From Dictyostelium fasciculatum (taxonomy: Eukaryota), in NCBI RefSeq assembly GCF_000203815.1, contig NW_004457624.1, positions 3,058,354 to 3,122,353 on the forward strand: a stretch of DNA of 64,000 nt, read 5' to 3'. Positions within the stretch are counted from its first letter, which is position 1. Every line of letters begins with the position of its first letter. Positions 1,511 to 39,969 of this stretch are shown in pieces. The notes below the pieces were generated by a model. The model was not told where the DNA came from. It did no database searches and worked only from the letters and a program-made list of their open reading frames with translations. The translations under genes and the position numbers were made by a program.

Positions 1511-4055
1511 TCAAACACTTGAACATTATTATTCAGATCAATATCCAATTTTAGCTAAAAAGTTAAATGTACCATTTATTTTACAATCACATATTAATCA
1601 TACTCAAAACGAACACATTATACCAGAATTGTGTGAAAAGACATTGGAAATGGGACCAAATCATTATAGAATCCTAAAGTTGTTGTTTAATCGATTATTC
1701 CATGCATCACCATTCAAAGATCTTAAAAGAGTGGCCAAGGGTGCATTTGGTACAGTTTACAAAGGATATGTAGCTCATGACGAAGGTTTGGAGGTTGCAG
1801 TCAAACTCATGCCAGTTCCAAAGAGTATTCATGATCGTTGCGTACTCCATGACATTTTTACAGAGATTCTCATTATGGATACCTTTAGAAGTGATCATCG
1901 TGCCTGTCATATGTTTGACTATGGTGTAGATGGTGAAAACTATTGGATTGCCATGAAATCCTATAAATGCTCTCTAAAGGAATGGAGATTAAAACAAACT
2001 GGAACTTTCCTTCAAAATCTACCATTATATTTGAATATTTATATGAATGTTTTATTAACTGTTCAATTTTTAGCTGAAAATAGTAAGAGAAAAAAACAAC
2101 CCAAAATAGATCTATTTTATACTAATTTTATCTCTCTTTTAGAAATCAATCATTTTGATATTAAATGTGATAATTTTTTGGTTCATCCAATTAAAAAAGG
2201 AACATTGGAAGAAGATTTTTGGAATCAACCAACAAGTGATCCAAATTTTATTGTTTGTTTAGCTGGTAACTATTTATAAATAATTTATCAATAACTGGTT
2301 TTAATCATTTTTATTATTTTATTAGATTGGGGAGAAGCAAAAGTTTATATTCATGATATTGATGGATACACAACAAGAAATAGAGGAACAGAATTTATAA
2401 AGAGTCCAGAAATGTTGATGATTGCATTTGCTTCACAAAAGACTAGAGAGAATTTCGATAGAAGAAAAAAGGTTGGAAGTAACACAACGTCGGATGTATG
2501 GTCGTTGGGATGTCTCTTTTACGAGTTGTTGACTGGTGACTTTTTATTCTATGATGACGATTGGGTAAAGTTCTTTATCCGTGTCACTCAACCCGGTCAA
2601 GAACTTATTACACCTGACAAGAAGGCAAAGATTAGCAACATGTCTGCAATTTGTGACTTTTTGGATTTCATTTTCGTCCGTGACCCATTCTATCGTCCAA
2701 CATTACGCGATCTATTGACTAAATTTGCAGTAGCCAAGCCACTCATATTGGCCGAGTTGGGACAAATCAAGATGAAGCTCAGTCAAGACGATCTGCTAAA
2801 TATCGAACAACCAAAACAATACTTTAGCGGTGGTGATGGTACAAGATACAAGGGACCTAGCAAGATCAGTGGACACTATACTCCAGGTCGTTTCTTCCCT
2901 CATAGCTACAACCTAAACAATCCAACTGGATTGCTCTCCAACAAAAATGCAAAGGCATCACAACAAACACTCTCTGATGACTCTTTGGCAAATGAACAAC
3001 CAGAATTCCCCGAACACAAATATCTCATGGAATATCCTTCAAAAATCACCTCTTTTATGTATATATCTTCTTATCAACCTTCCATGAATAGAAATCTTTT
3101 AAAAAATAATTATCGTATGTACAAACAAAATAATAGAAAAAAAGAATTTATTTATTTATAATTTATTTATTTTTATTTTTTTATAGATATAACTCATATA
3201 ATTAATTGTACTGGTTCACCAAATGCATTTCCTGATCATTTTGAATATTTACATTTACAATTGCACGATGATGAGTCACAAGATATCCTACATTCATTGA
3301 CTTCGGCATTTGATTTCATTAGAGATGCCATTGTACATCAAGGAAGAGTATTGATCGTGTCTGATAAGGGAATTAGTAGAAGTGCGGCATTGGCTATTGG
3401 TTATTTCATGGATTCTCGATCGATCAGCTATTTTGAAGCTTTTATTCTCATCCGTGACTGTCGTTACATTATCAACCCTAATCTTGGTTTTGTAGAGCAA
3501 CTCTGTCGCTGGGGTAAACAACGTCGTACACAAAAGGGTCTCGCAGAATGGGGTGGAGGTATTGAAGCCCAGTTTGCCAATACCAACAACACCACCACTC
3601 AGTTCCAATGTCTGTGTGGAGCATGTGTCTTTACGCTGTTGGCACCGTTTGACTCTACCAAATTCAAGAACCCTCGTAATTGCAACTGCTCCAAAGACCA
3701 GAGTCAAGACTGTCCAAATCTTTTGGGTTGCTCTTCTTTCCTACACGACATGAAGAAGTTGCACAATTATAGTAGTTCGTCCAATCATGTTATTTGGGGC
3801 TACACCAACATTACCAATGTAGTTGGTGATTATAAACGTTCTTCTGTTGAAATTCAATATCCAAAATCACCTCCAACAAACAGCATTAATAATGGTTCGA
3901 TCAACAGAAAAGACTGGACACTCTATAAATGTAAAACATGCCACTTTTTGACATACGCCATCAACAATAATCAAAATAACAATAATCAATTTACAGACAA
4001 GACCGTTGCAATCGTAACCAATATCAGAAGTGATAGATTAACTGTTAAAAGATAA
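1511..4055 (+). CDS. Protein kinase domain fused to a C-terminal dual-specificity-phosphatase-like domain. Exons are 1511 (or ATG 1650)..2265, 2326..3114 and 3187..4055. Kinase motifs: G-loop AKGAFGTVYKG, VAVK, HFDIKCDN (HRD-like), DWG (DFG-like), SDVWSLGC. DUSP-fold motifs: ITHIINCTG ... VSDKGISRS.
   Basis: ORFs 1629..2279, 2412..3161 and 3261..4055 join through introns 2266..2325 (GTAACT...TTATTAG) and 3115..3186 (GTATGT...TTTATAG). Phases are consistent and ATG1650-to-stop is 2274 nt, which is 758 codons. The kinase activation segment VCLAG|DWGEAKV spans the first intron. Confidence 0.75.
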
Positions 4056-10968: not shown

Positions 10969-11190
10969 TTAGTACCATGACTCCTTGTGAGATTCGTGGT
11001 AGGTATGGTTGGCCCAGTTGACAGTGACACCGAGAGCAACAAAGTATGGAACAATGTAGAGAGCGTTTTCTCTGACACCTCTCTTCAAATGTGGGATGGC
11101 ATTCTTAAAGTAGTTTACAAACAACTTTTGTTGGAATGGTGATAAGGTGTATGTGATTTGCTTTCCGTAAACTTTTCCTCCGCCGCCCAT
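10969..11190 (-). CDS. Ubiquinol-cytochrome c reductase complex subunit 8 (QCR8/UQCRQ-like, 73 aa).
   Basis: ORF 10969..11190 (-): MGGGGKVYGKQITYTLSPFQQKLFVNYFKNAIPHLKRGVRENALYIVPYFVA. It matches the UQCRQ pattern (…YSLSPFEQR…KGIPN…RR…VPxFV). Confidence 0.65.
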   Translation of the reverse strand: MGGGGKVYGKQITYTLSPFQQKLFVNYFKNAIPHLKRGVRENALYIVPYFVALGVTVNWANHTYHESHKESWY

Positions 11191-12053
11191 TTTCTTATTT
11201 ATCTTATTTCTAAAGGGGTAGTAATATATTAGAATCTATAGATTGCTTGCAAGTTGTTCTGATGAACGAAGAGGAAAGGTGTGTGAATGATCGCAGAGAC
11301 AGAAAAAAAAAAAAATCAAAAAAAATAAAACAAAAAGTCACACATCATCACTCTCTCTTTGTTGTTGTAGAACAAACAAAGATAGAGATATACTATACAT
11401 TGTATAATATCCTCCTACATATATCTACTTTGATCCATTTACATCGTTGGCACAATACTACACAATATTTATTATTACGATCTTATCAAGGGATGTCCCT
11501 GGTCATATGACACAATCAAACATGACATGACATGATTGTTTCATTTCATTATTTTACATTTTTAAAAAACATATTATATTATACTTAGACTCTTATTTGG
11601 TTTTAAAAGTAAGTAAAAGGAAAGTACTCCTTTTTCTAGTTGGAAGAAGTACGGTACTTTGGGAGTACGGCTCGTTTTAATAAACCGCCAAAAAGTAATT
11701 AAAATTGATTTTTGTTTTTTTCTCTCGTCACAGCTTGCGTAACCAACAAAAAGGCGAACGAGTCGTTTTTAACTCTTTCCTGAACTTTCGTTAGGCAAGT
11801 GTAGAGATAAAGATAATTATTTTATTTGTTATATATATATAATATATTTTCGTAAATTTATTTATATAATAATCTAAAACAATCGTACTACTTTCTTTAA
11901 GTTTTTTAAATCGTTCATTACAAACTATTTAACTAAACCATATCTACACTTTATATATATATCTTTTTTTTTTTTTTTTTAAAAACAACAAACAACAACA
12001 AATACATATAAATTTATTTATTTATATACATATATAATTATACTTTTAAAGAA

Positions 12054-13880
12054 ATGAAATATATTTTAGTAACAGGAGGAGTTTTATCGGGTATTGGTAA
12101 AGGTATCATTGCTAGTAGTACTGCAATGATTCTAAAGTCGATGGGTTTGCGTGTCACATCGATCAAGATTGACCCATACCTTAATATCGATGCCGGTACC
12201 ATGTCACCATTCGAACACGGAGAGGTGTTTGTGTTGAATGATGGTGGAGAGGCTGACTTGGATCTCGGTAACTACGAACGTTTCCTCAACGTCTCGTTGA
12301 ACCGTGACAACAACATTACAACCGGCAAGATCTACAACACCGTCATTGAAAAGGAGCGTAAGGGTTTGTTCCTCGGCAAGACCGTCCAAGTCGTGCCACA
12401 CATTTCCGAAGAGATCCAGCAATGGGTTGAACGTGTCGCTCACGTGCCAGTCGACGGCGAAGAGGGCTATCCAGACGTCTGCGTCATCGAGCTCGGTGGC
12501 ACTGTCGGTGATATCGAGTCGATGCCCTTTATCGAGGCCATGCGTCAGTTCCAGTTCCGTGTGGGCCCAGAAAACTTTTGTTTGATGCATGTCTCGCTCG
12601 TGCCAGTGATTGGCGTCGTCGGCGAGCAAAAGACCAAGCCTTCACAACAGTCGGTTCGCGAGCTCCGTGCCCTTGGTTTGTCGCCAGACTTTGTCATGTG
12701 TCGTAGCGGCCAGCCACTCACCTCGGACACCCGTCGCAAGATCTCACTCTTTTGCCATGTTGCTCCAGACAATGTCATTGGCGTGCACGACGTCTCCAAC
12801 ATCTACCGTGTCCCCCTCTTGTTGTACCAACAAAACATTGCCAACCTCATCGTCAAGCGTCTCCATCTCACCCCCAAGGTCGACATTCATATCCACGGCC
12901 AAGAGAATGGTCAACAACAACAACAACAACAAGATAGCGGCGCCGACGTTGACAAGGTAACTGACGCCTTTGCCGTGCCATACTGGCTCCAATCCTGGAA
13001 GGAGATGGCCGACCGTATGGACCGTGTCGGTAACGAGCAGGGATACGGGCCCATACGTATCGCCATGGTCGGCAAGTACACCGGTCTCACCGACAGCTAT
13101 TTGTCCGTCATCAAGGCACTCGAGCATGCTTCCATGCACCTCGACCGTAAGATGGTCATCGACTGGGTTGAAGCCACCGATCTCGAGCCCATCCCCACCG
13201 GCACCGCCGCCACCAGCTCGGTCGAGCCATCTGGTCTCGCCTCTGCCACTCGTTCAGTCGAGTCGTACGACCGCGCCTGGACAATCCTCAACCAATGCCA
13301 CGGTGTCCTTGTGCCAGGTGGTTTCGGCGACCGTGGTATTGAAGGTATGATCCTCGCTGCCAACTATGCCCGTGTCAACAACAAGCCATACCTCGGTATC
13401 TGTCTCGGTATGCAAGTTGCCGTCATGGAGTTTGCCCGTAACGTCATGGGATGGGCCAACGCCACCTCTGAAGAGTTTACCAATGTCGGAGGCGGCAAGA
13501 ACGTCGTCGTCTTTATGCCAGAGGTTTCCAAGACCCATATGGGTGCCACCATGCGTCTCGGCTTGCGTCCAACCATCATCAACGACCCAAATAGCAAGAT
13601 TGCCAAGTTGTACGGCGTCACCAAGGTCGGTGAGGCCGTTGAGGAGCGTCATTGTCATCGTTAGGAAGTCAACCCAGACGTCGTCGAAGAGATTGACGCC
13701 AAGGGTTTGCACTTTGTCGGCAAGGACGACCAAAATGTCAGAATGGAAATTGTCGAACTCAAGGATCACGTATACTTTGTCGGTTGCCAATTCCATCCAG
13801 AGTTCAAGTCTAGACCTATCAAACCATTTCCACCATTTGTTGGTTTAATTCCAAGCTTCATGGGATTTTATGGCTTCTAA
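12054..13880 (+). CDS. CTP synthase (N-terminal synthetase domain plus C-terminal glutamine amidotransferase domain). The frame is interrupted by an in-frame TAG at 13662..13664, after which it continues open to TAA at 13878..13880.
   Basis: ORF 12054..13664: [60 protein letters not shown]; GATase motifs LGICLGMQ and HPEF. Downstream in the same frame: [34 protein letters not shown]. There is a poly-Q insertion at about 12905..12930. Confidence 0.85.
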
Positions 13881-14439
13881 AAAACCTCTAAAAACAAATA
13901 AATAATAATACTTTTTTTTCCCCTCCTTCCCCCCTCTAATAAAATATAATATAATATAATAATAATATATGTAACTCAAAACAAATCAAAATCATACCCA
14001 AGTACTTATTATTTCTATTATAATAATTTATTTATCCTTTTTTTTTTTGGCGTGAGTTAATTATTCTTGGATCATCCCAATTATTTTGCTTGTCATATCT
14101 TGTCAGAGATGGAGAAAGATGTAGTCCTTTTAAACTGAACCTACAACAATAATTATAAATACTTTTTGGCCCCTAACACAATCCATTTCTTTCTTTCTTT
14201 CTTTCTTTTTGAAATCTCAATATATATTAGGTTTATCGTTTGGTAGATGAAATAACCAAAGTAAATAATGAAATTTACCCTCAATGTGGTATCAAGTTTC
14301 TAATTCCTCCAATTATAAATAGTAATTTAACAAAATTTAAAAATATTCAATTATTTGTTGAATATCAATAATATTTAAATAAAAAGTATATATACATTCA
14401 TGTGATCAAATTTCTGTTTAATTATTATTCTTTCTTTTT

Positions 14440-16162
14440 TTAAATTTGTTGTTGTTGACCAAAGAAAAGTGATAGGTCAACTTGAACATAGGTACCACAA
14501 CAAGCACAAATTCTAGTGTTTCCAGTACCTTCTTCAAATGCTACATACATGGTAGAGTTGGCAGCATGGAAAGCAGCACTAATGACATTCATACCAGTGT
14601 TTGCATTGGAACAATCGAAAAAGTCACCTTCGTTGCCCTTTGCACCGAGGGTGGATGTGATGTTGATGGCTGCCAATTCGTCAATGGCAATCGATGCAGA
14701 TTGGTAGTACTCAAAGGCATTGTAGAGGAGCATGTAACGAATCATAGTATCGTCACCTGGTCCTGGTAATTGGTATTGATATTTTCTAATGAGTGGATCG
14801 TATCCATGGTTGGTACGATAGACAGCTTGTGGAATGGGGTATCCCATTTGGGTCTTGTCACCAGTATTGGGGTCTACATAGATATAGGCAGATTCGAGTG
14901 TATCATTGTCTGGGAAAAAGGCAGTGTATCCCTTCATAGTCTCGAGTGCGTAGGCTGGATGTTCGACAGTATCAACTTCAAAGGCAGACGATAGCATGTG
15001 GTTCATACCCATCGTGTTGTTGGTTGCCTTCCAAATATTGAGAGCATCTTCTATATTGTTGGCATACTGCATGACATAACGAAGACGATGTGCCCACGAC
15101 ATACCATCAAATGTCACCAAATCCGAGTCATTGTCACTTTCTGCAACGAAAATACCTTTGGAAGAGATACCAGTGATGGCACCAAACAAACCGGCAAATC
15201 CAACTGCCACATGACTATTACCTCCAGTGGTTGGATGGAAGAATGTGAGTAACTTGTGCTTGGCAATACCAGTGTCAATGATCCAATCCAAATTACGACC
15301 ATTATACATCTCTCCTTGAACCGTACGATCTCCCCAAACTGAGAAATGACTACATTGCATTGAATCGGGTGATAGCTTTCCATGTGGTACTCCCTTTTTT
15401 TCAATATACTCTAAAAATGCTTCAGACTTTAATTCACTATAGAAAGCTTGAATAAGTATTTAATTGAACTACTACTACTATCTTTTTCTACATTTGTCTT
15501 ACTTGATTAAAAGATATTCAATATTTTGACCAGCATCGCCTGGGAATGAGGAGAGTACTATACATCTAGTGATGGCTTTACCCATTTGAGTGAATCCGGA
15601 ATGTACTGCACCATCATTGAAACCATTGATTTCATCAGAGAATTCTTGTGGGAATTGTTTAGAGAGATAATCATCCCATTGCCAATCAAGGAATACTTCA
15701 AGTGCATCATTCTCTAAAAAGTTTGGAACCAATGTCTTGAATAATGATAAATAATTTTCATATGCTTCATTCTAAAATAGATTAGATAGATAGATTAGTT
15801 ATTTGTCTCTATCGTATACGGTATATCAAGTTGATGATCATACAGCCAAAAAAACACCAAGCGAGAAACCCATTTCATAATGTGAACCAGTAAGATTTGC
15901 GACCATGATTGGATCAGCGTATCCAGTTGATATCATTGTGTATAATTGACTTCCATTACTATAAAAAATGATTTGAGAGAGAGAGAGAGTCAGAGAGTCA
16001 GAGTCAGGTGTCGTTGTGTATTTTCAAGACAACATACTATTGTTTAACTAAAGATAATTGTGGATTATAATCAATTTTGAATGATGGTGTTGCAGCATTG
16101 CTAATAGACAATGATGACATTACTGCCAACACTGTCAAGAGGATGGTATAATAAAATAACAT
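14440..16162 (-). CDS. Secreted peptidase C45 / acyl-CoA:6-aminopenicillanic-acid acyltransferase-like Ntn-hydrolase. Four exons: 16038..16162, 15844..15958, 15503..15771 and 14440..15436 (about 501 aa).
   Basis: A signal peptide (MLFYYTILLTVLAVMSSLSISNA) is present. SHYEMGFSLG matches the EIGYEHG motif. FSDEINGFNDGA is present. QCSHFSVWGDRTVQGEMYNGRNLDW matches the DGCTT..GQNWDF autoprocessing/nucleophile region. GTATGT/GTAAGA donors and TAG acceptors were used. Exon lengths sum to 1506 nt, which is divisible by 3. Confidence 0.55.
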
Positions 16163-30653: not shown

Positions 30654-33349
30654 TTATTTTGGGATATTACCACCAACCAAACCATTGGCAGTATTGAAGA
30701 GATTGATTGGTGAAGAACCATCGGTAATCATGAAACTCTTGAGACCGAGACCAGAGAGGAGCTTGGCTTGCATTTCTGGGCCAGCTTGGGCGATGGATTT
30801 GATAGTGTCGGCACCGATGGATCCAACAATGTCTCTAAACTTCTTGGCATCGATTTCAGTGAGATCCTTGGCACGTTGGATTTCGAGTTCATCCAACTTC
30901 TTCTTGTATTGGAGTTCGGCCTCACGCTTTTGCTTGATCAAGAGGAGTTCAGATTCGGAACGGATCTTGGTGGCTTGAGCCTTGAGCTTGGCTTGGTTAA
31001 CGTTAGCCTCGGCAGTGATGGCTTGGGCTTCAGCTTGGGCTTGAGCTTCTGCGGTTGCTTGACCGGTGGATTCGACGGCAGCAGATTGGGCTTGCAACTC
31101 GAGCAACTCCTTTTTGGCAAGTTCGGCAGCAGCTTCATCATTGATCTTTTGACGTTCGAGACGACCACGGGCACCTTGTTCGAGCTTTTCGGCTTCGTGA
31201 CGGGCAGCAGCTTCTTGAGACTTGGTGGTGATTTCGATGGCCAATTGGACAGACTTTTGGAGAGAGTCACGGGTACGTTGGTCGACTGGTTCGACAGATT
31301 GAATATCAATGTTGGTGACGACGAGACCGTTGGAATTGAAAACAAAGTTTTCCTTTGGCTTGCCAGTTTCATCAAAACCAAAGACAGAGTGACGGATAAT
31401 TTCAGCAGAACGCTTGTGGAAGTCGTCAAATGGAACGGCAGCGACGGCACCACGGACACGCGAGGCGATGGCCTTGCAAGAGTCACCAACAAAATCTGGG
31501 ACTTGGAAGATCTTTTGGGCATCCTCCTTTTTGGTCTTGTCAATGACAAATTGCCAGTTGTAGGACAACTTCAACGAGAGCTTGGCGTGATCAGAGGTTT
31601 CGACAATGACAACGTCGGTCATGAAATCTGGACCGAGGTAGAGAGCAATAGACTTGATGACGTGTGGACGCTTTGGCTTTTCACCAGAGAGCGAGAGGAC
31701 GGTAAAGTGTTCGTCTGGACCGAGCATGACCAACTCTGGACCGAAAACAACACGAGCCTTCTTTTCCTTGTAATCGTAGATTTGGACGGCAGAGTTGTGT
31801 GGGGCACGGTAAGTAACAACACGGGTCTTGTCACGGCTGCCAAAGTCGGGGTCGTTGGTTTCCTTGGCAAAGACTTCTTCGACGGTCTTGGGCAACTCCT
31901 TTTCCCAGAGTTCTTCGTTTGGACGAAGCATATAGGTACGGGCAGAGAGCGAGGCAACCTTACCAGTCTTGATATCACGGACATAGATACCTTCGTTGTC
32001 GTCCAATGGGATCGAGGTACGCTTCTCGGCAACTTCGACTTGGACGGGTGGGATGAAATCGGTTGGACCATAGATCATCCAACGGTCACCGGCCAAATGG
32101 GTTTCGGCGCCATCAGTAAAGGTTTCCTTGGCACGGAGGAGGAGGGCTTCTTGGTCGTTGAGAATGTAGACTGGGTTGATACGGTTGCCTTCGAGCGACT
32201 CTCCTGGACGGAGGAAAAAGGAGACTTCACCCTTGCGCAACTCCTTTTGACCGAGTTGTGGCTTGCCGTTGGCACCGACTGGGTCGAGGACGACACAGTA
32301 TTGACGCTTGGAGAGGGTGGTGATGGCAATCTCAGAGACGACGGTTTCATAGACATCGGCAATATGGGTTTCACGGTCGGACGAGGTGACGAGCCATTCT
32401 TCACCGGCCTTTCTTTGGACTGGGGTCTTGCCAGACTCGTCGGTGAACGACTTGATGGCCTTGAGGTGGAGAGCCTTCTTGTCGGTCAAAATGTATGCGT
32501 TGACAGTCTCGACAATCTTTTCGTCGACGCCTGGCAAGTAGGAACCGCTTTGACGGACCAACCACTCTTCACCGGCCTTTCTGGCAGTGCCGAGTCTGTC
32601 GATACAGGCCTTGTTGGCACGGAGCTTGAGGGCTTGGTTTGGACCGATAATGTTGGCCTTGATCTCTTCCTCGACACGGACTTCAATGCGTGGCAAGTAG
32701 GTGCCTGGACCTTCGTATAACCATTCGTCACCGGCAACGTGGGTGACCTTGCCTTCGGTAAAGTCACGGAGTGCTCTGAGACGAAGAGCACGGAGTGGTG
32801 GAACGACTTGGAGGGCAGTGACCTTGCCAACCAACTTTTCACCTGGGTATAATGGGAATGGGTCTTGAGCAACACGGATCTCTTCATCACCGTGTCTCAA
32901 CTTGACTTGGTTAAACTCATCCAAAGCCAATGATCCGTCGGCCTTGCGAACTACTGGGTTACCAATGGTGCAGTAGTTACGGAGTGGAATCATGATCATG
33001 GGATCTGGACCGGCAACTACCTTTTCGTGGTCTTGACGTGTAAAGGTGTTTGGACCAATCTCTACTCTGGTTACATTGGTATTATTATCCAAGACATGAA
33101 TGTATTGGTATGGTTTGATACGTATCACTAAAATATATAATAGAGAGAAGAGAAATAAAAGAATGAATAAGTTAGAATAGAGAACTTAAGAAAAATCGTA
33201 AAGACTGTAAGACATCAAGTCTAACAACAAATATTGCGTTCAGTTTTGTGGTCGATCATTTGATAGATCGTTCACTACTTTTGCTCTATTTGTTGTTTCT
33301 ATTGATGTTGAGTCTTGTTTGATAACAAACCTGAGTTGGTGGCATCCAT
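30654..33349 (-). CDS. mvp: Major vault protein, paralog A. Exons 33331..33349 (MDATNS + G) and 30654..33127 (830 aa).
   Basis: ORF 30654..33128 (-): (V)[59 protein letters not shown]..., MVP repeats, shoulder/cap-helix region and C-terminal [22 protein letters not shown]. It is closely collinear with human MVP. An upstream mini-exon is joined via GTTTGT...TTTTAG. Confidence 0.9.
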
Positions 33350-35420: not shown

Positions 35421-38115
35421 ATGTCACAACCATCGACCGTAATCAGAATCAAGCCCCACCAATATATTCATGTATGTTGTTTGTTGACTTTAATCACATG
35501 ATCATCAATCGATCAAATCAACCATCGACTGTTCTTTGTGTGAATTAATCACGATAATCATGTGTCAATCAATATATACTCAGTAATCTAACCATTTCAT
35601 TATTTTATTTACTCTATTTATATTTTTGTAGGTATTAGATAATAATACAAATGTTGCAAGAGTCGAGATTGGTCCACAAACCTTTACTCGTCTCGATCAC
35701 GAAAAGGTAGTTTCAGCATCACCATTGTCAATGATTATGATCCCACCAAGAAACTATTGTATTATTGAAAACCCAGTTATTAGAGGAGCTGATGGAAAGC
35801 TCATTCTCGATCAATTCGAACAACCAAAGCTCAGACACGGTGACACTGAGATTCGTTTTGCTCAAGATCCATTTGCATTATACCCAGGTGAAGTCCTCTT
35901 GGCCCCACCAGTCCCACTCCAAGTTGTACACGCCAACAGTGCCCTCCGTCTCAAGTGTCTTCGTGACTTTGTCGAGGTCACTGCCGACAAGAAGGAGCTC
36001 CACCACGTCGCCGGTGACGAGTGGCTCTTTGAAGGCCCAGGCACCTACTACCCCAAGGTCGAAGTCCAAGTTGTCGAAGTCGCCAAATCCACCATCATCA
36101 AGGAGAACCAAGCCCTCCGTCTCAGAGCCCGTCTCCAAACCACCGATCGTAAGGGTGTTGTCCGTCAACCAGGAGAAGAATGGTTGGTCCGTGACAGCGG
36201 TGCCTACTTGCCAGGTGTCTATGAAGAGATTGTTGGCTTTGTTGCCGCTCTTGTCTTGACCGACCGTATTGCCTACCAATTGCTTGCTCTCCGTTCCTTC
36301 AAGGATCAATTTGGCAAGTCCCGTCGTGCCGGTGAAGAGTGGATCATCACTCAAAAGGACAGCGACACTTACATCCCATCGGTCGATGAAAAGGTAGTTC
36401 GTGACTTGAAGGCCATCACCCTCACCAACCGTCAATACTGTATCGTCGCCGACCCAATCGACCCAACCTCTGGCAAGAACCAACTCGGCCACAAGCAACT
36501 CCGCAAGGGTGACCGCACATTCTTCCTCTTGCCAGGCGAAACCTTGGTAGGTGGTGTCCAAAACGTCAACGTCCTCGCCGAAGACGAAGCCCTCTTGCTC
36601 TCGGCCAAGGAAATGTTTGTCGAAAAGACAGAAAAGGAGACTGTTACCCGTAAGCCAGGAGACAGCTGGATGATCTATGGTCCAACCGACTATATCCCAC
36701 CCATTGAAATCGAAGTCGTCGAGAAGCGTAAGCGTATCCCATTGGACGTCAACGAAGGTATCTATGTCCGTGACACCAAGACTGGCAAGGTCCGTTCCGT
36801 CATTGGCGCCTCGTACATGTTGTCTGCCAACGAAGAGAGATGGCCAAAGCCCCTCACCCCAATCGTCGACGAGCTCCTCTCCAAGTCGGCCACCCGTGAC
36901 GCCAACGAAGAGTCCAACGATGTTGAACGTGATCCAACTGAAGTCGTCACTTACCGTGTCCCACACAATGCCGCCGTCCAAATCTATGACTACCGTAAAA
37001 AGGAGGCTCGTGTCATTTTCGGTCCAGAGTTGGTCATGCTCGCTCCAGATGAAGAGTTTACCGTCCTCTCCCTCTCTGGTAAGATTCCAAAGCGTCCAAA
37101 CCATATTCGTTCCCTCGCCCTCTTCCTCGGTCCAGATTTCATGACTGATCTCATCACTGTCGAAACTGCCGATCATGCTCGTCTCTCCTTGAAGCTCTCC
37201 TACAACTGGCATTTCAAGATCGATCCAAAGAATACTAGCAAGTTGTTTGCCTCATCCGATTTCACTGGTGATTTGTGCAAGGCTACTGGTTCTTTGGTTC
37301 GTGCTGCCGTCGCTGCCTCCACTTTTGACAACTTCCACAAGCACTCTTCGGAAATCATCCACGAAGCTGTCTTTGGCAAGACTGAAGATGGTAGCCCATG
37401 CGACCAATTGGTTTTCGAAACCAACGGTCTCGTCATTACCAACATTGATGTTCAATCTGTAGAACCAGTTGATCAACGTACCTTGGACTCTCTCCAAAAG
37501 TCTGTCCAATTGGCCATTGAAATTACCACAAAGTCACAAGAACAATCTGCCCGTCAAGATGCCGAACGTCTTGAACAAATTGCTCGTGGTGAATTGGAAC
37601 GTCAAAAGATTGTTGATGAAGCCCATGCCGAACGTGCTCGTTCCAACCTCGTCAAGCTCCAAGCTCAATCTGCCTCTGTCGAATCCACCGGTCAAGCTAT
37701 CGCTGAAGCCCGTGCTCGTGCTGAAGCCTCACTCATTGCCATCGACGCTGAAGTCAAGCAAGCCAAGCTCGAATGTGAAGCCTCTGAAATTGAAGCCGCC
37801 GCCGAACTCGAACAAACCATTGCCCTCCACGAATCTGAAATCGACCACATCCAATCACTCAATGAACTCGAGGTCAACAAGGCCAAGGAACTCGCTGGCA
37901 TTGAAGTCTCCAAGTTTTCCAACCAAGTCGAAGCCCTCGGTACCGAAACCATCAAATCCATTGCCCAAGCTGGCCCAGAAATGCAAGCCAAGCTCCTCGG
38001 CGGTCTCGGTCTCAAGAGTTTCATGATTACCGACGGTAAATCTCCAATCAATCTCCTCAATACCGCTAATGGTTTAATCGGTAATACTTCATCTGGTTCA
38101 TTTGGTGATTTCTAA
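35421..38115 (+). CDS. mvp: Major vault protein, paralog B. Exons 35421..35471 and 35632..38115 (844 aa).
   Basis: [17 protein letters not shown]|[49 protein letters not shown]... collinear with paralog A and human MVP (about 60% identity to paralog A by eye). The intron is GTATGT...TTTGTAG. Confidence 0.9.
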
Positions 38116-38349: not shown

Positions 38350-39969
38350 TTAATTGCGTAATGAGAAAAATGTTGGAGGTGATGAAATTAGATTTTGTAT
38401 ATTATTATTATTATTGCGTTTAATGTTTAATGGATTGGGTAATAAATCATCAGAACATTCTTGGATATCATCATCTTCTTCTACTTCTTCTTCTTCTTCT
38501 TCATTGATTGGATTTATAAGATTGGATATTGATAATTTGGAAGATGATATAGAAGAAGATTGATTAATACGATGTTCAGAAAATGGTATTGGTTGTGGAT
38601 GACTATTATTATTATTATTATTATGATTGTTGTGATGATTATTATGATATGGGGAATAACGATTAGGACTTGAATTCCCAGATCCTGTAGAAAGATTTAA
38701 AATTCTTGGTGGCGTAGTGGAAGAGGGAGTAGTGGAAGCACTACCATTATTTGATGATGGAGGACTACCATTTAATTGGAATGGTTTATCTTCTCGGAGT
38801 GGATGTGGAAATGTTGGTGGGAAATCAAATTCATCAATGGATGTAGGTTGACTAATCCGATGATTCATCATTGATGGAACTTTCTGATCTCTAAAACTAA
38901 AAAATGATGGTGTTATATTTCCATTTGGTAAATCATTTACCCCAGTATTTTGATTTCTTTGAGGACCTTGATTTCTTAATTGTTGATGAATATATTTTAA
39001 TTTATGATCAAATATTTGATTATTATTAATATTAGTGTTATTGTCAAAACTAAATGATCTACTTCTTGGTCTTGCACTTGGTGATGCCATTGATAATTTG
39101 TTAATTTCAAATAGTGATTTTGAAGGTGGTACTCCTGATAAAGGTCCATTATTATTAGTATTATTGGTTGAGTTTGATTGACCATTGACAGAGGAACGAG
39201 TAGGTGAAAACATTAAAGATGAAAAGGATGAAGTCAAGAGTGGAGTAGAGGTATTTGAATTTGCTGAACCATAAATGGGAGGTGAAAGTATAAAATGATT
39301 ATTTTGATTATTATTATTATTGGAATGAAATTCAGGTGATAATAAAGGTGAAAGAATTGGAGATGATGGATTTGATATTAAAATATTGTTGGCTGAAAGA
39401 TCATCTTCCCATGGATCATTATAATCTTTTAATTTCCAATATCCATAACAATCATGTCTATCTGCTCCACTAACAAATAATCTTCTACAATGTGAAAGTG
39501 CATCTTGTAATTGTTTTCTCCATCCATTTGTTTCTTTAAAAAAAAATTAAATTAATAAATAGAAAAAAGATTTGATTTTTTTTTGTATGTTTTTTTGTTT
39601 ATATTTACTTTTCTTTTTTGAACAAATAATATCCCAATGAGTAGCAACATAACCATAGACATCTTTTTTTAGGTTAAAAAATTCCTTTTCTGGATATAAT
39701 TGTTTTAAACAATAAAATACAACTCGTAGGATAGAGACCCAAGATACTGATCTAGATACTAGACATGGTGGTAATTCTTTGGTACAAATAAGACAATAAT
39801 TTGGAAATGGACATGGTTCAATGGTTGGTTGAACAATTGGTGATGTTGCCATTGATGATGGCATTGATGATGATGATGAAGAGGATGATGAAGAAGAATT
39901 ATATGATGGAGGAGAATTTGATCGATTATCATAATCATCCAAATAATGAATTGTGGATGTTTGATTCAT
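38350..39969 (-). CDS. S/N-rich low-complexity protein with an N-terminal Cys-rich motif (CPFPNYCLICTKELPPC ... HW ... WRKQLQDALSHCRRLFVSGADRHDCYGYW). Exons 39609..39969 and 38350..39533 (about 514 aa).
   Basis: ORFs 39547..39969 and 38350..39237 are continuous after removing the intron 39534..39608 (GTAAAT...TTTAAAG). The total is 1545 nt, divisible by 3. It has long poly-S, poly-N, HNNHHNNHNNNNNN and EEEEEVEEDDD tracts. No confident family assignment. Confidence 0.4.

Follow-up and report, generated by a model that had tools for sequence, protein, structure and literature searches.

The CTP synthase gene (ctps) of Cavenderia (Dictyostelium) fasciculata lies on the plus strand at 12054..13880 of the 64,000-nucleotide stretch of genomic DNA that we analyzed (the window), where conceptual translation gives a single frame of 608 positions that includes an internal TAG. 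The open reading frame (ORF) starts with an ATG at 12054, preceded by a typical AT-rich leader, and runs for 536 codons to the TAG at 13662-13664. Beyond the TAG the same frame continues for 71 sense codons (EVNPDVV...GFYGF) and then reaches a TAA at 13878-13880. No intron and no frameshifts were seen in the frame. An initial annotation, made from the letters of the DNA, had proposed that this is a CTP synthase frame, clean for 536 codons, in which a Cys codon and a TAG interrupt a highly conserved motif. The sequence, its translation and Pfam bore out the identity of the gene, the motif and the position of both codon changes, and the first 536 codons were indeed clean. The 72 further codons that it counted need a small correction, as the frame is open to the TAA as described, with 71 sense codons, and the figure of 72 includes the TAA itself. 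The features of the locus are as follows.

10969..11190, minus strand: UcrQ, cytochrome b-c1 subunit 8, the upstream neighbor (Pfam UcrQ, E 6.6e-15)
12054..13880, plus strand: complete conceptual ctps frame (78% identity to the Heterostelium and 73% to the D. discoideum CTP synthase, over 99% of the length)
12057..12869, plus strand: synthase (amidoligase) domain, residues 2-272 (Pfam PF06418 CTP_synth_N, E 1.7e-123)
13086..13844, plus strand: class I glutamine amidotransferase domain, residues 345-597 (Pfam PF00117 GATase, E 1.1e-34)
13401..13403, plus strand: codon of the glutaminase nucleophile Cys450 (GICLGMQ; E. coli Cys379), intact and 5' of the TAG
13653..13655, plus strand: TGT, Cys534 in place of Arg (E. 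coli Arg468, Drosophila Arg479); C>T relative to Heterostelium CGT
13662..13664, plus strand: in-frame TAG in place of a conserved Tyr (position 537; E. coli Tyr471); T>G relative to Heterostelium TAT, next base G
13665..13877, plus strand: the 71 codons after the TAG, which make up the rest of the glutaminase domain, with conservation kept
13794..13802, plus strand: codons of His581-Pro-Glu583 (QFHPE), with the catalytic His and Glu (E. coli His515 and Glu517), present only 3' of the TAG
13827..13829, plus strand: TTT, Phe592 in place of Ser (KPSPPF; Ser in 119/119 full-length homologs)
13878..13880, plus strand: TAA, the normal ctps terminator, read directly from the sequence

The PF06418 match covered the full profile, as is expected of a CTP synthase N-terminal domain, and the synthase domain was 83-90% identical to its amoebozoan orthologs. 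The PF00117 match bridges the TAG and was detected only when the conceptual read-through product was used. The stop also divides the glutaminase catalytic triad. The nucleophile codon lies upstream of it, and the codons of the catalytic His (13794-13796) and the catalytic Glu (13800-13802) lie downstream, so that Cys, His and Glu are not encoded in one polypeptide and the literal product is without two of the three triad residues. In the E. coli enzyme both His515 and Glu517 belong to the triad (PMC9138612). A product that ends at the TAG has neither of these residues and would be without glutamine-dependent activity. CTP synthase is able to use exogenous NH3, and the glutaminase-dead E. coli variant G352P retains NH3-dependent activity (PMC9138612). 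By analogy with such glutaminase-dead point variants, the ammonia-dependent reaction of the synthase domain is the only one that could survive in the literal product.

Compared with other dictyostelid CTP synthases (PyrG / URA7 / CTPS, EC 6.3.4.2), including those of Heterostelium album and D. discoideum (ctps), the gene has the same PF06418 plus PF00117 architecture and 73-78% full-length identity. As in these genes, the nucleophile Cys and the QFHPE codons are in frame with each other, and the UcrQ neighbor is as in Heterostelium. It differs from them in having Cys for R468, TAG for Y471 and Phe for Ser, and in lineage-specific insertions, including poly-Gln, in two variable loops. One insertion, at 12912-12932, encodes a run of seven Gln within the inter-domain linker. 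The other, at about 13188-13256, adds a Ser-, Thr- and Ala-rich segment of approximately 20 residues to the glutaminase domain and is absent or shorter in the other aligned dictyostelids.

Database searches returned as the top match the annotated CTP synthase of C. fasciculata itself (EGG14457.1 / XP_004353866.1 / UniProt F4QCM9), with 100% identity over the covered part. The C-terminus of this protein is ...VEERHCHR, which places the lesion in the deposited assembly and its annotation and not just in the window. A truncated CTP synthase model is already in the public databases. The next-best matches were the proteins of Heterostelium (78% identity), D. discoideum and D. purpureum (both 73%) and Tieghemostelium (70%). 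Among the 120 best protein matches, all with at least 57% identity, there was one CTP synthase for each dictyostelid species named and no second one from C. fasciculata. The Heterostelium ctps locus also has UcrQ upstream on the minus strand, in the same orientation, and this common neighbor identifies the C. fasciculata gene as the orthologous locus and not a stray copy. Orthology to the dictyostelid ctps locus is thus seen both in the best matches (70-78% identity) and in the conserved neighbor. Its architecture, sequence identity and synteny make the locus a CTP synthase gene, and it is best described as one whose deposited sequence is damaged.

Further copies of the junction were sought in several ways. 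A protein search with a 130-residue query across the stop gave no independent copy, the closest match being only 63% identical. No other contig or cluster member matched the annotated protein or the 536-residue ORF exactly, and exact-pattern scans of metagenome contigs for the junction gave 0 matches. The supplements of Gloeckner et al. (2016) contain no mention of ctps.

The F4QCM9 model carries an extra 33-residue N-terminus (MTPCEIRDSYLVLKLEEVRYFGSTARFNKPPKK) assembled from tiny predicted exons (10977-10997 and 11637-11694, with a junction near 12052), and the first of these exons overlaps with UcrQ, which is encoded on the other strand. Every one of the 14 aligned amoebozoan orthologs starts at or near MKYI(L/V)V, and for this reason the extension is probably a gene-prediction artefact.

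Around the two lesions the local translation is EERHCHR-stop-EVNP. In the 238 motif-containing homologs that we retrieved the sequence, which belongs to the GTP and glutamine site, is ERHRHR[Y/F]E[V/I]N, and the C. fasciculata gene departs from it with ERHCHR-stop-EVN. The position of Cys534 is Arg in 238/238 homologs, and the position of the TAG is Tyr in 237/238 and Phe in 1/238; human CTPS1, too, has Phe at this position. The view that both residues are conserved was therefore fully confirmed for the second Arg and was slightly overstated for the Tyr. In E. coli numbering the motif is E465-R466-H467-R468-H469-R470-Y471, such that Cys replaces R468 and the stop replaces Y471. In E. coli CTP synthase R468, R470 and E68 sit at the purine of the allosteric activator GTP (PMC9138612), and in a Drosophila cryo-EM structure Arg481 (equivalent to E. 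coli R470) makes three hydrogen bonds to the guanine (PMC8325340).

We compared the 13 codons across this site with those of Heterostelium. The Heterostelium DNA reads GTC GAG GAG CGT CAT CGT CAT CGT TAT GAA GTC AAC CCA and the C. fasciculata DNA reads GTT GAG GAG CGT CAT TGT CAT CGT TAG GAA GTC AAC CCA, with three differences, namely the two lesions and one synonymous change. Given the CGT and TAT codons of Heterostelium, the lesions are a C>T at 13653 and a T>G at 13664, 11 nt apart. The DNA encoding RHRHR (13644-13664) is a near-perfect tandem hexamer, which in Heterostelium reads CGTCAT CGTCAT CGT.

The third deviation at an otherwise invariant site, Phe592, lies within 176 nt of the first odd base. 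A few shorter fragment sequences have Ala or Gly at this site and none has Phe. Phe592 may be a further error, a passenger mutation or a true change of this lineage. The description of the gene as otherwise intact held in that no frameshift was present, but this replacement of a Ser shared by all 119 full-length homologs has to be added to it. Each of the three odd bases copies a flanking base, a homopolymer-extending pattern that pyrosequencing miscalls typically leave, as does polymerase dislocation. We set this pattern aside as a signature of error, because it would be expected by chance in approximately 15% of cases.

To place the lesions against the conservation of the rest of the gene we used a reference set of 14 amoebozoan CTP synthase orthologs. 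Upstream of R534 there were 0 lineage-specific changes in 256 columns that are otherwise invariant, and in the remaining 29, which begin with R534 itself, there were three (R534C, the stop and S592F); this difference (3/29 against 0/256) gives a Fisher p of about 0.001 for a split point that was picked post hoc. Residues 538-595, the 58 after the stop, were 71-79% identical to the orthologs. This equals the conservation of the upstream half of the glutaminase domain (62-77%) and that of the orthologs compared with each other (72-79%), and no decay after the stop was detected by amino-acid identity. Codon use gave the same picture. The gene has a GC content of 49% and a strong codon bias in a window that is mostly 30-35% GC, and in the 40 codons across the TAG the GC content at third codon positions (GC3) was 0.65, the bias continuing past the stop. 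Along the gene GC3 was 0.32 in codons 1-40, 0.57-0.78 in the middle and 0.35 in codons 561-600, a profile similar to that of the Heterostelium ortholog. The 3' drop in GC3 was considered as a possible sign of decay and rejected, because the 5' end of ctps is equally low and the Heterostelium gene has the same shape.

As the rest of ctps is undecayed, the lesion must be instantaneous in evolutionary terms. The gene was under full purifying selection until just now on that time scale, which rules out an old pseudogene; several lesions, excess divergence and lost codon bias would mark such a gene, and here there was one stop and no frameshift. The initial annotation had also argued against an old pseudogene, and the invariant columns, the GC3 values and the identity after the stop support it well. 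For an established pseudogene whose function has passed to a second CTP synthase gene elsewhere in the genome, the in-frame stop and the damaged invariant residues speak in its favor. We nevertheless regard it as very improbable, given that the locus is the syntenic ortholog, that it has no frameshifts, excess divergence or loss of codon bias, and that the 120 best matches (at least 57% identity) hold no second C. fasciculata copy and one gene for each of the other dictyostelids.

The possibility that the TAG is real and is read through, with Tyr inserted by a near-cognate tRNA-Tyr or a suppressor tRNA to give some full-length enzyme, draws on the placement of the stop exactly at the Tyr codon, one base from TAT, on the intact frame downstream, and on the low-level misreading of UAG by tRNA-Tyr. 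It had been offered as one option in the initial annotation and found no support here. The stop is not conserved, being TAT in Heterostelium and Tyr or Phe in all 238 motif-bearing homologs. Its context, UAG-GAAGUC with G at +4, is unlike the known read-through contexts, which are UAG-CARYYA or have C at +4. No stimulatory RNA structure was found, the fold of 13656-13775 (120 nt) being no more stable than shuffles (z +0.55), and there was no Rfam match in 11000-15000 and no tRNA gene, suppressor tRNAs included, in the 64-kb window. A read-through product would moreover retain Cys at the invariant Arg (E. coli R468). Programmed read-through, as in tobacco mosaic virus (UAG-CARYYA) and in metazoan genes, shares with ctps an in-frame UAG followed by an open and meaningful frame, but the ctps stop is unconserved, has no stimulatory context or structure, and lies midway through a catalytic domain, not ahead of a C-terminal extension. 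Taken together, these observations leave read-through highly unlikely. Still less credible, to the point of being almost negligible, is that TAG means Tyr in a non-standard code, or that mRNA editing restores CGU and UAU. Both changes are formally reversible in RNA and the TAG is at a Tyr position. Dictyostelids use the standard genetic code, however, and the long conserved ORFs of the window, among them both major vault protein genes, a RasGAP protein and a fragment of an ABC transporter, have no in-frame TAG. Editing would need both a U>C and a G>U/C change to restore the motif, a combination that is not known from nuclear mRNAs of Amoebozoa, and the Heterostelium ortholog encodes the motif directly in its DNA. 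An intron that would remove the TAG was also considered and rejected, because the region is GC-rich and collinear codon-for-codon with the orthologs. The sole local GT...AG stretch (gtcatcgttag) is 11 nt long and its removal would shift the frame.

Pairs of long same-frame ORFs elsewhere in the window were checked for a second in-exon stop joining them, which could have pointed to a variant code or an error-prone assembly, and none was found among the pairs checked. In-frame TAA codons at 3159-3161 and 39547-39549 join ORFs of 288+297 and 167+398 codons, respectively; the short AT-rich DNA around each stop resembles an ordinary dictyostelid intron, and neither stop looks like a nonsense mutation. 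The segment at 44.2-45.0 kb is low-complexity non-coding DNA, and most of the other ORF-pair candidates are shadow frames of known genes.

Two readings, both already named in the initial annotation, hold most of the weight, and everything else together has only a small share of the probability. With moderate confidence we infer that the reference consensus is wrong at the two bases, and the lesion is then most likely not present in the living organism. The error would be a local one that arose by base-calling, in assembly, or from a mutated clone or PCR product during finishing of the Sanger and 454 assembly. The true gene would then read ERHRHRYEVNP and encode a normal 608-residue enzyme. The locus is the ordinary syntenic ctps, the only annotated copy found, and on this reading the TAG is no recoding signal. 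By our estimate, null alleles of so conserved a gene should be very rare in a haploid, whereas some false stops from consensus errors are to be expected in a Sanger and 454 draft of 31 Mb, so that a false stop is a priori much the commoner of the two. Dideoxy reads, 454 reads, fosmid maps and primer walks all went into the C. fasciculata assembly, a mixture that leaves room for local consensus errors or errors derived from a clone. There is a precedent in the D. discoideum reference, where one well-expressed gene contains two false TAA stops, with RNA-seq giving TTA in 100% of 56 and 33 reads, as well as a 1-base error, and where about 100 more genes are suspected (PMC5282741). This precedent means that reference errors can cluster within one gene. 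That gene, DDB_G0279477 (Singh et al., 2017; PMC5282741), is like ctps in that single-base substitutions made the stops in an expressed and well-conserved dictyostelid gene and that several errors are clustered. It differs in that its error was proved by RNA-seq and had been hidden by annotators with 3-bp 'introns', whereas the C. fasciculata protein simply ends at the stop and the error is deduced.

Some features of the locus count against a reference error. With its balanced GC content (49% in an AT-rich genome) the gene was probably well covered, which makes a consensus substitution error less likely. Low-quality 454 and Sanger errors typically include indels, yet the frame is kept for 71 codons past the TAG. 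The strain is fed on bacteria, such that a real null could be tolerated through pyrimidine salvage. These same points favor a real allele, a loss of function that SH3, the sequenced strain, would have acquired very recently through a single multi-nucleotide event changing the two bases 11 nt apart. Its product would have 536 residues, with an intact synthase domain and a glutaminase domain that lacks the 72 C-terminal residues from Tyr537 on and, with them, the catalytic His and Glu. Cells would survive by salvage of cytidine and CMP from their bacterial food, perhaps aided by ammonia-dependent activity of the truncated enzyme. After all, the deposited assembly does carry the lesion, which is made up of base exchanges without any insertion or deletion, in a region of balanced GC content and probably good coverage. 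Double substitutions in close proximity are also known to arise as real mutations. C. fasciculata is fed bacteria and not grown axenically, making cytidine salvage possible, and the use of NH3 by CTP synthase, as in E. coli G352P, also fits. The additional S592F past the stop, and with it the excess of changes at invariant columns from R534 onward (for the post hoc split given above), fit such an allele as well. The initial annotation had supposed that a nonsense allele would require a second functional copy of the gene; this does not strictly follow, in view of cytidine salvage from a bacterial diet and the direct use of ammonia.

Against a real allele, ctps is conserved in all of the bacterivorous dictyostelids sampled, so a null should be selected against. 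Published Dictyostelium mutation rates are very low, which makes it a priori very improbable that a gene of 1.8 kb would be hit during laboratory culture. A truncation within the core of the glutaminase fold may also give an unstable protein. We rank a real recent allele second, as less likely than a reference error but more likely than any other reading. There is only a slight chance that the TAG and the Cys are both real in SH3 and that some working enzyme is still made, either by low-level read-through with tRNA-Tyr or as an ammonia-dependent truncated enzyme in a high-ammonia organism.

The ctps lesion is no new kind of system and has little biological significance. Its main value is for curation, as F4QCM9 / XP_004353866.1 is probably wrong at both ends, being 72 residues short of 608 at its C-terminus and carrying the dubious 33 residues at its N-terminus. 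With a real allele, SH3 would naturally be auxotrophic for cytidine or would use ammonia-dependent CTP synthesis, a modest result that could be used in the study of pyrimidine metabolism in amoebae.

Elsewhere in the window two major vault protein genes are arranged head to head, at 30654-33128 on the minus strand and 35725-38115 on the plus strand, about 2.6 kb apart. Each is complete for its Vault repeat and shoulder domains, and their GC content (43-51% against a background of 30-35%) is raised as in ctps. The GC-rich vault and ctps genes suggest a strong codon bias in highly expressed genes.
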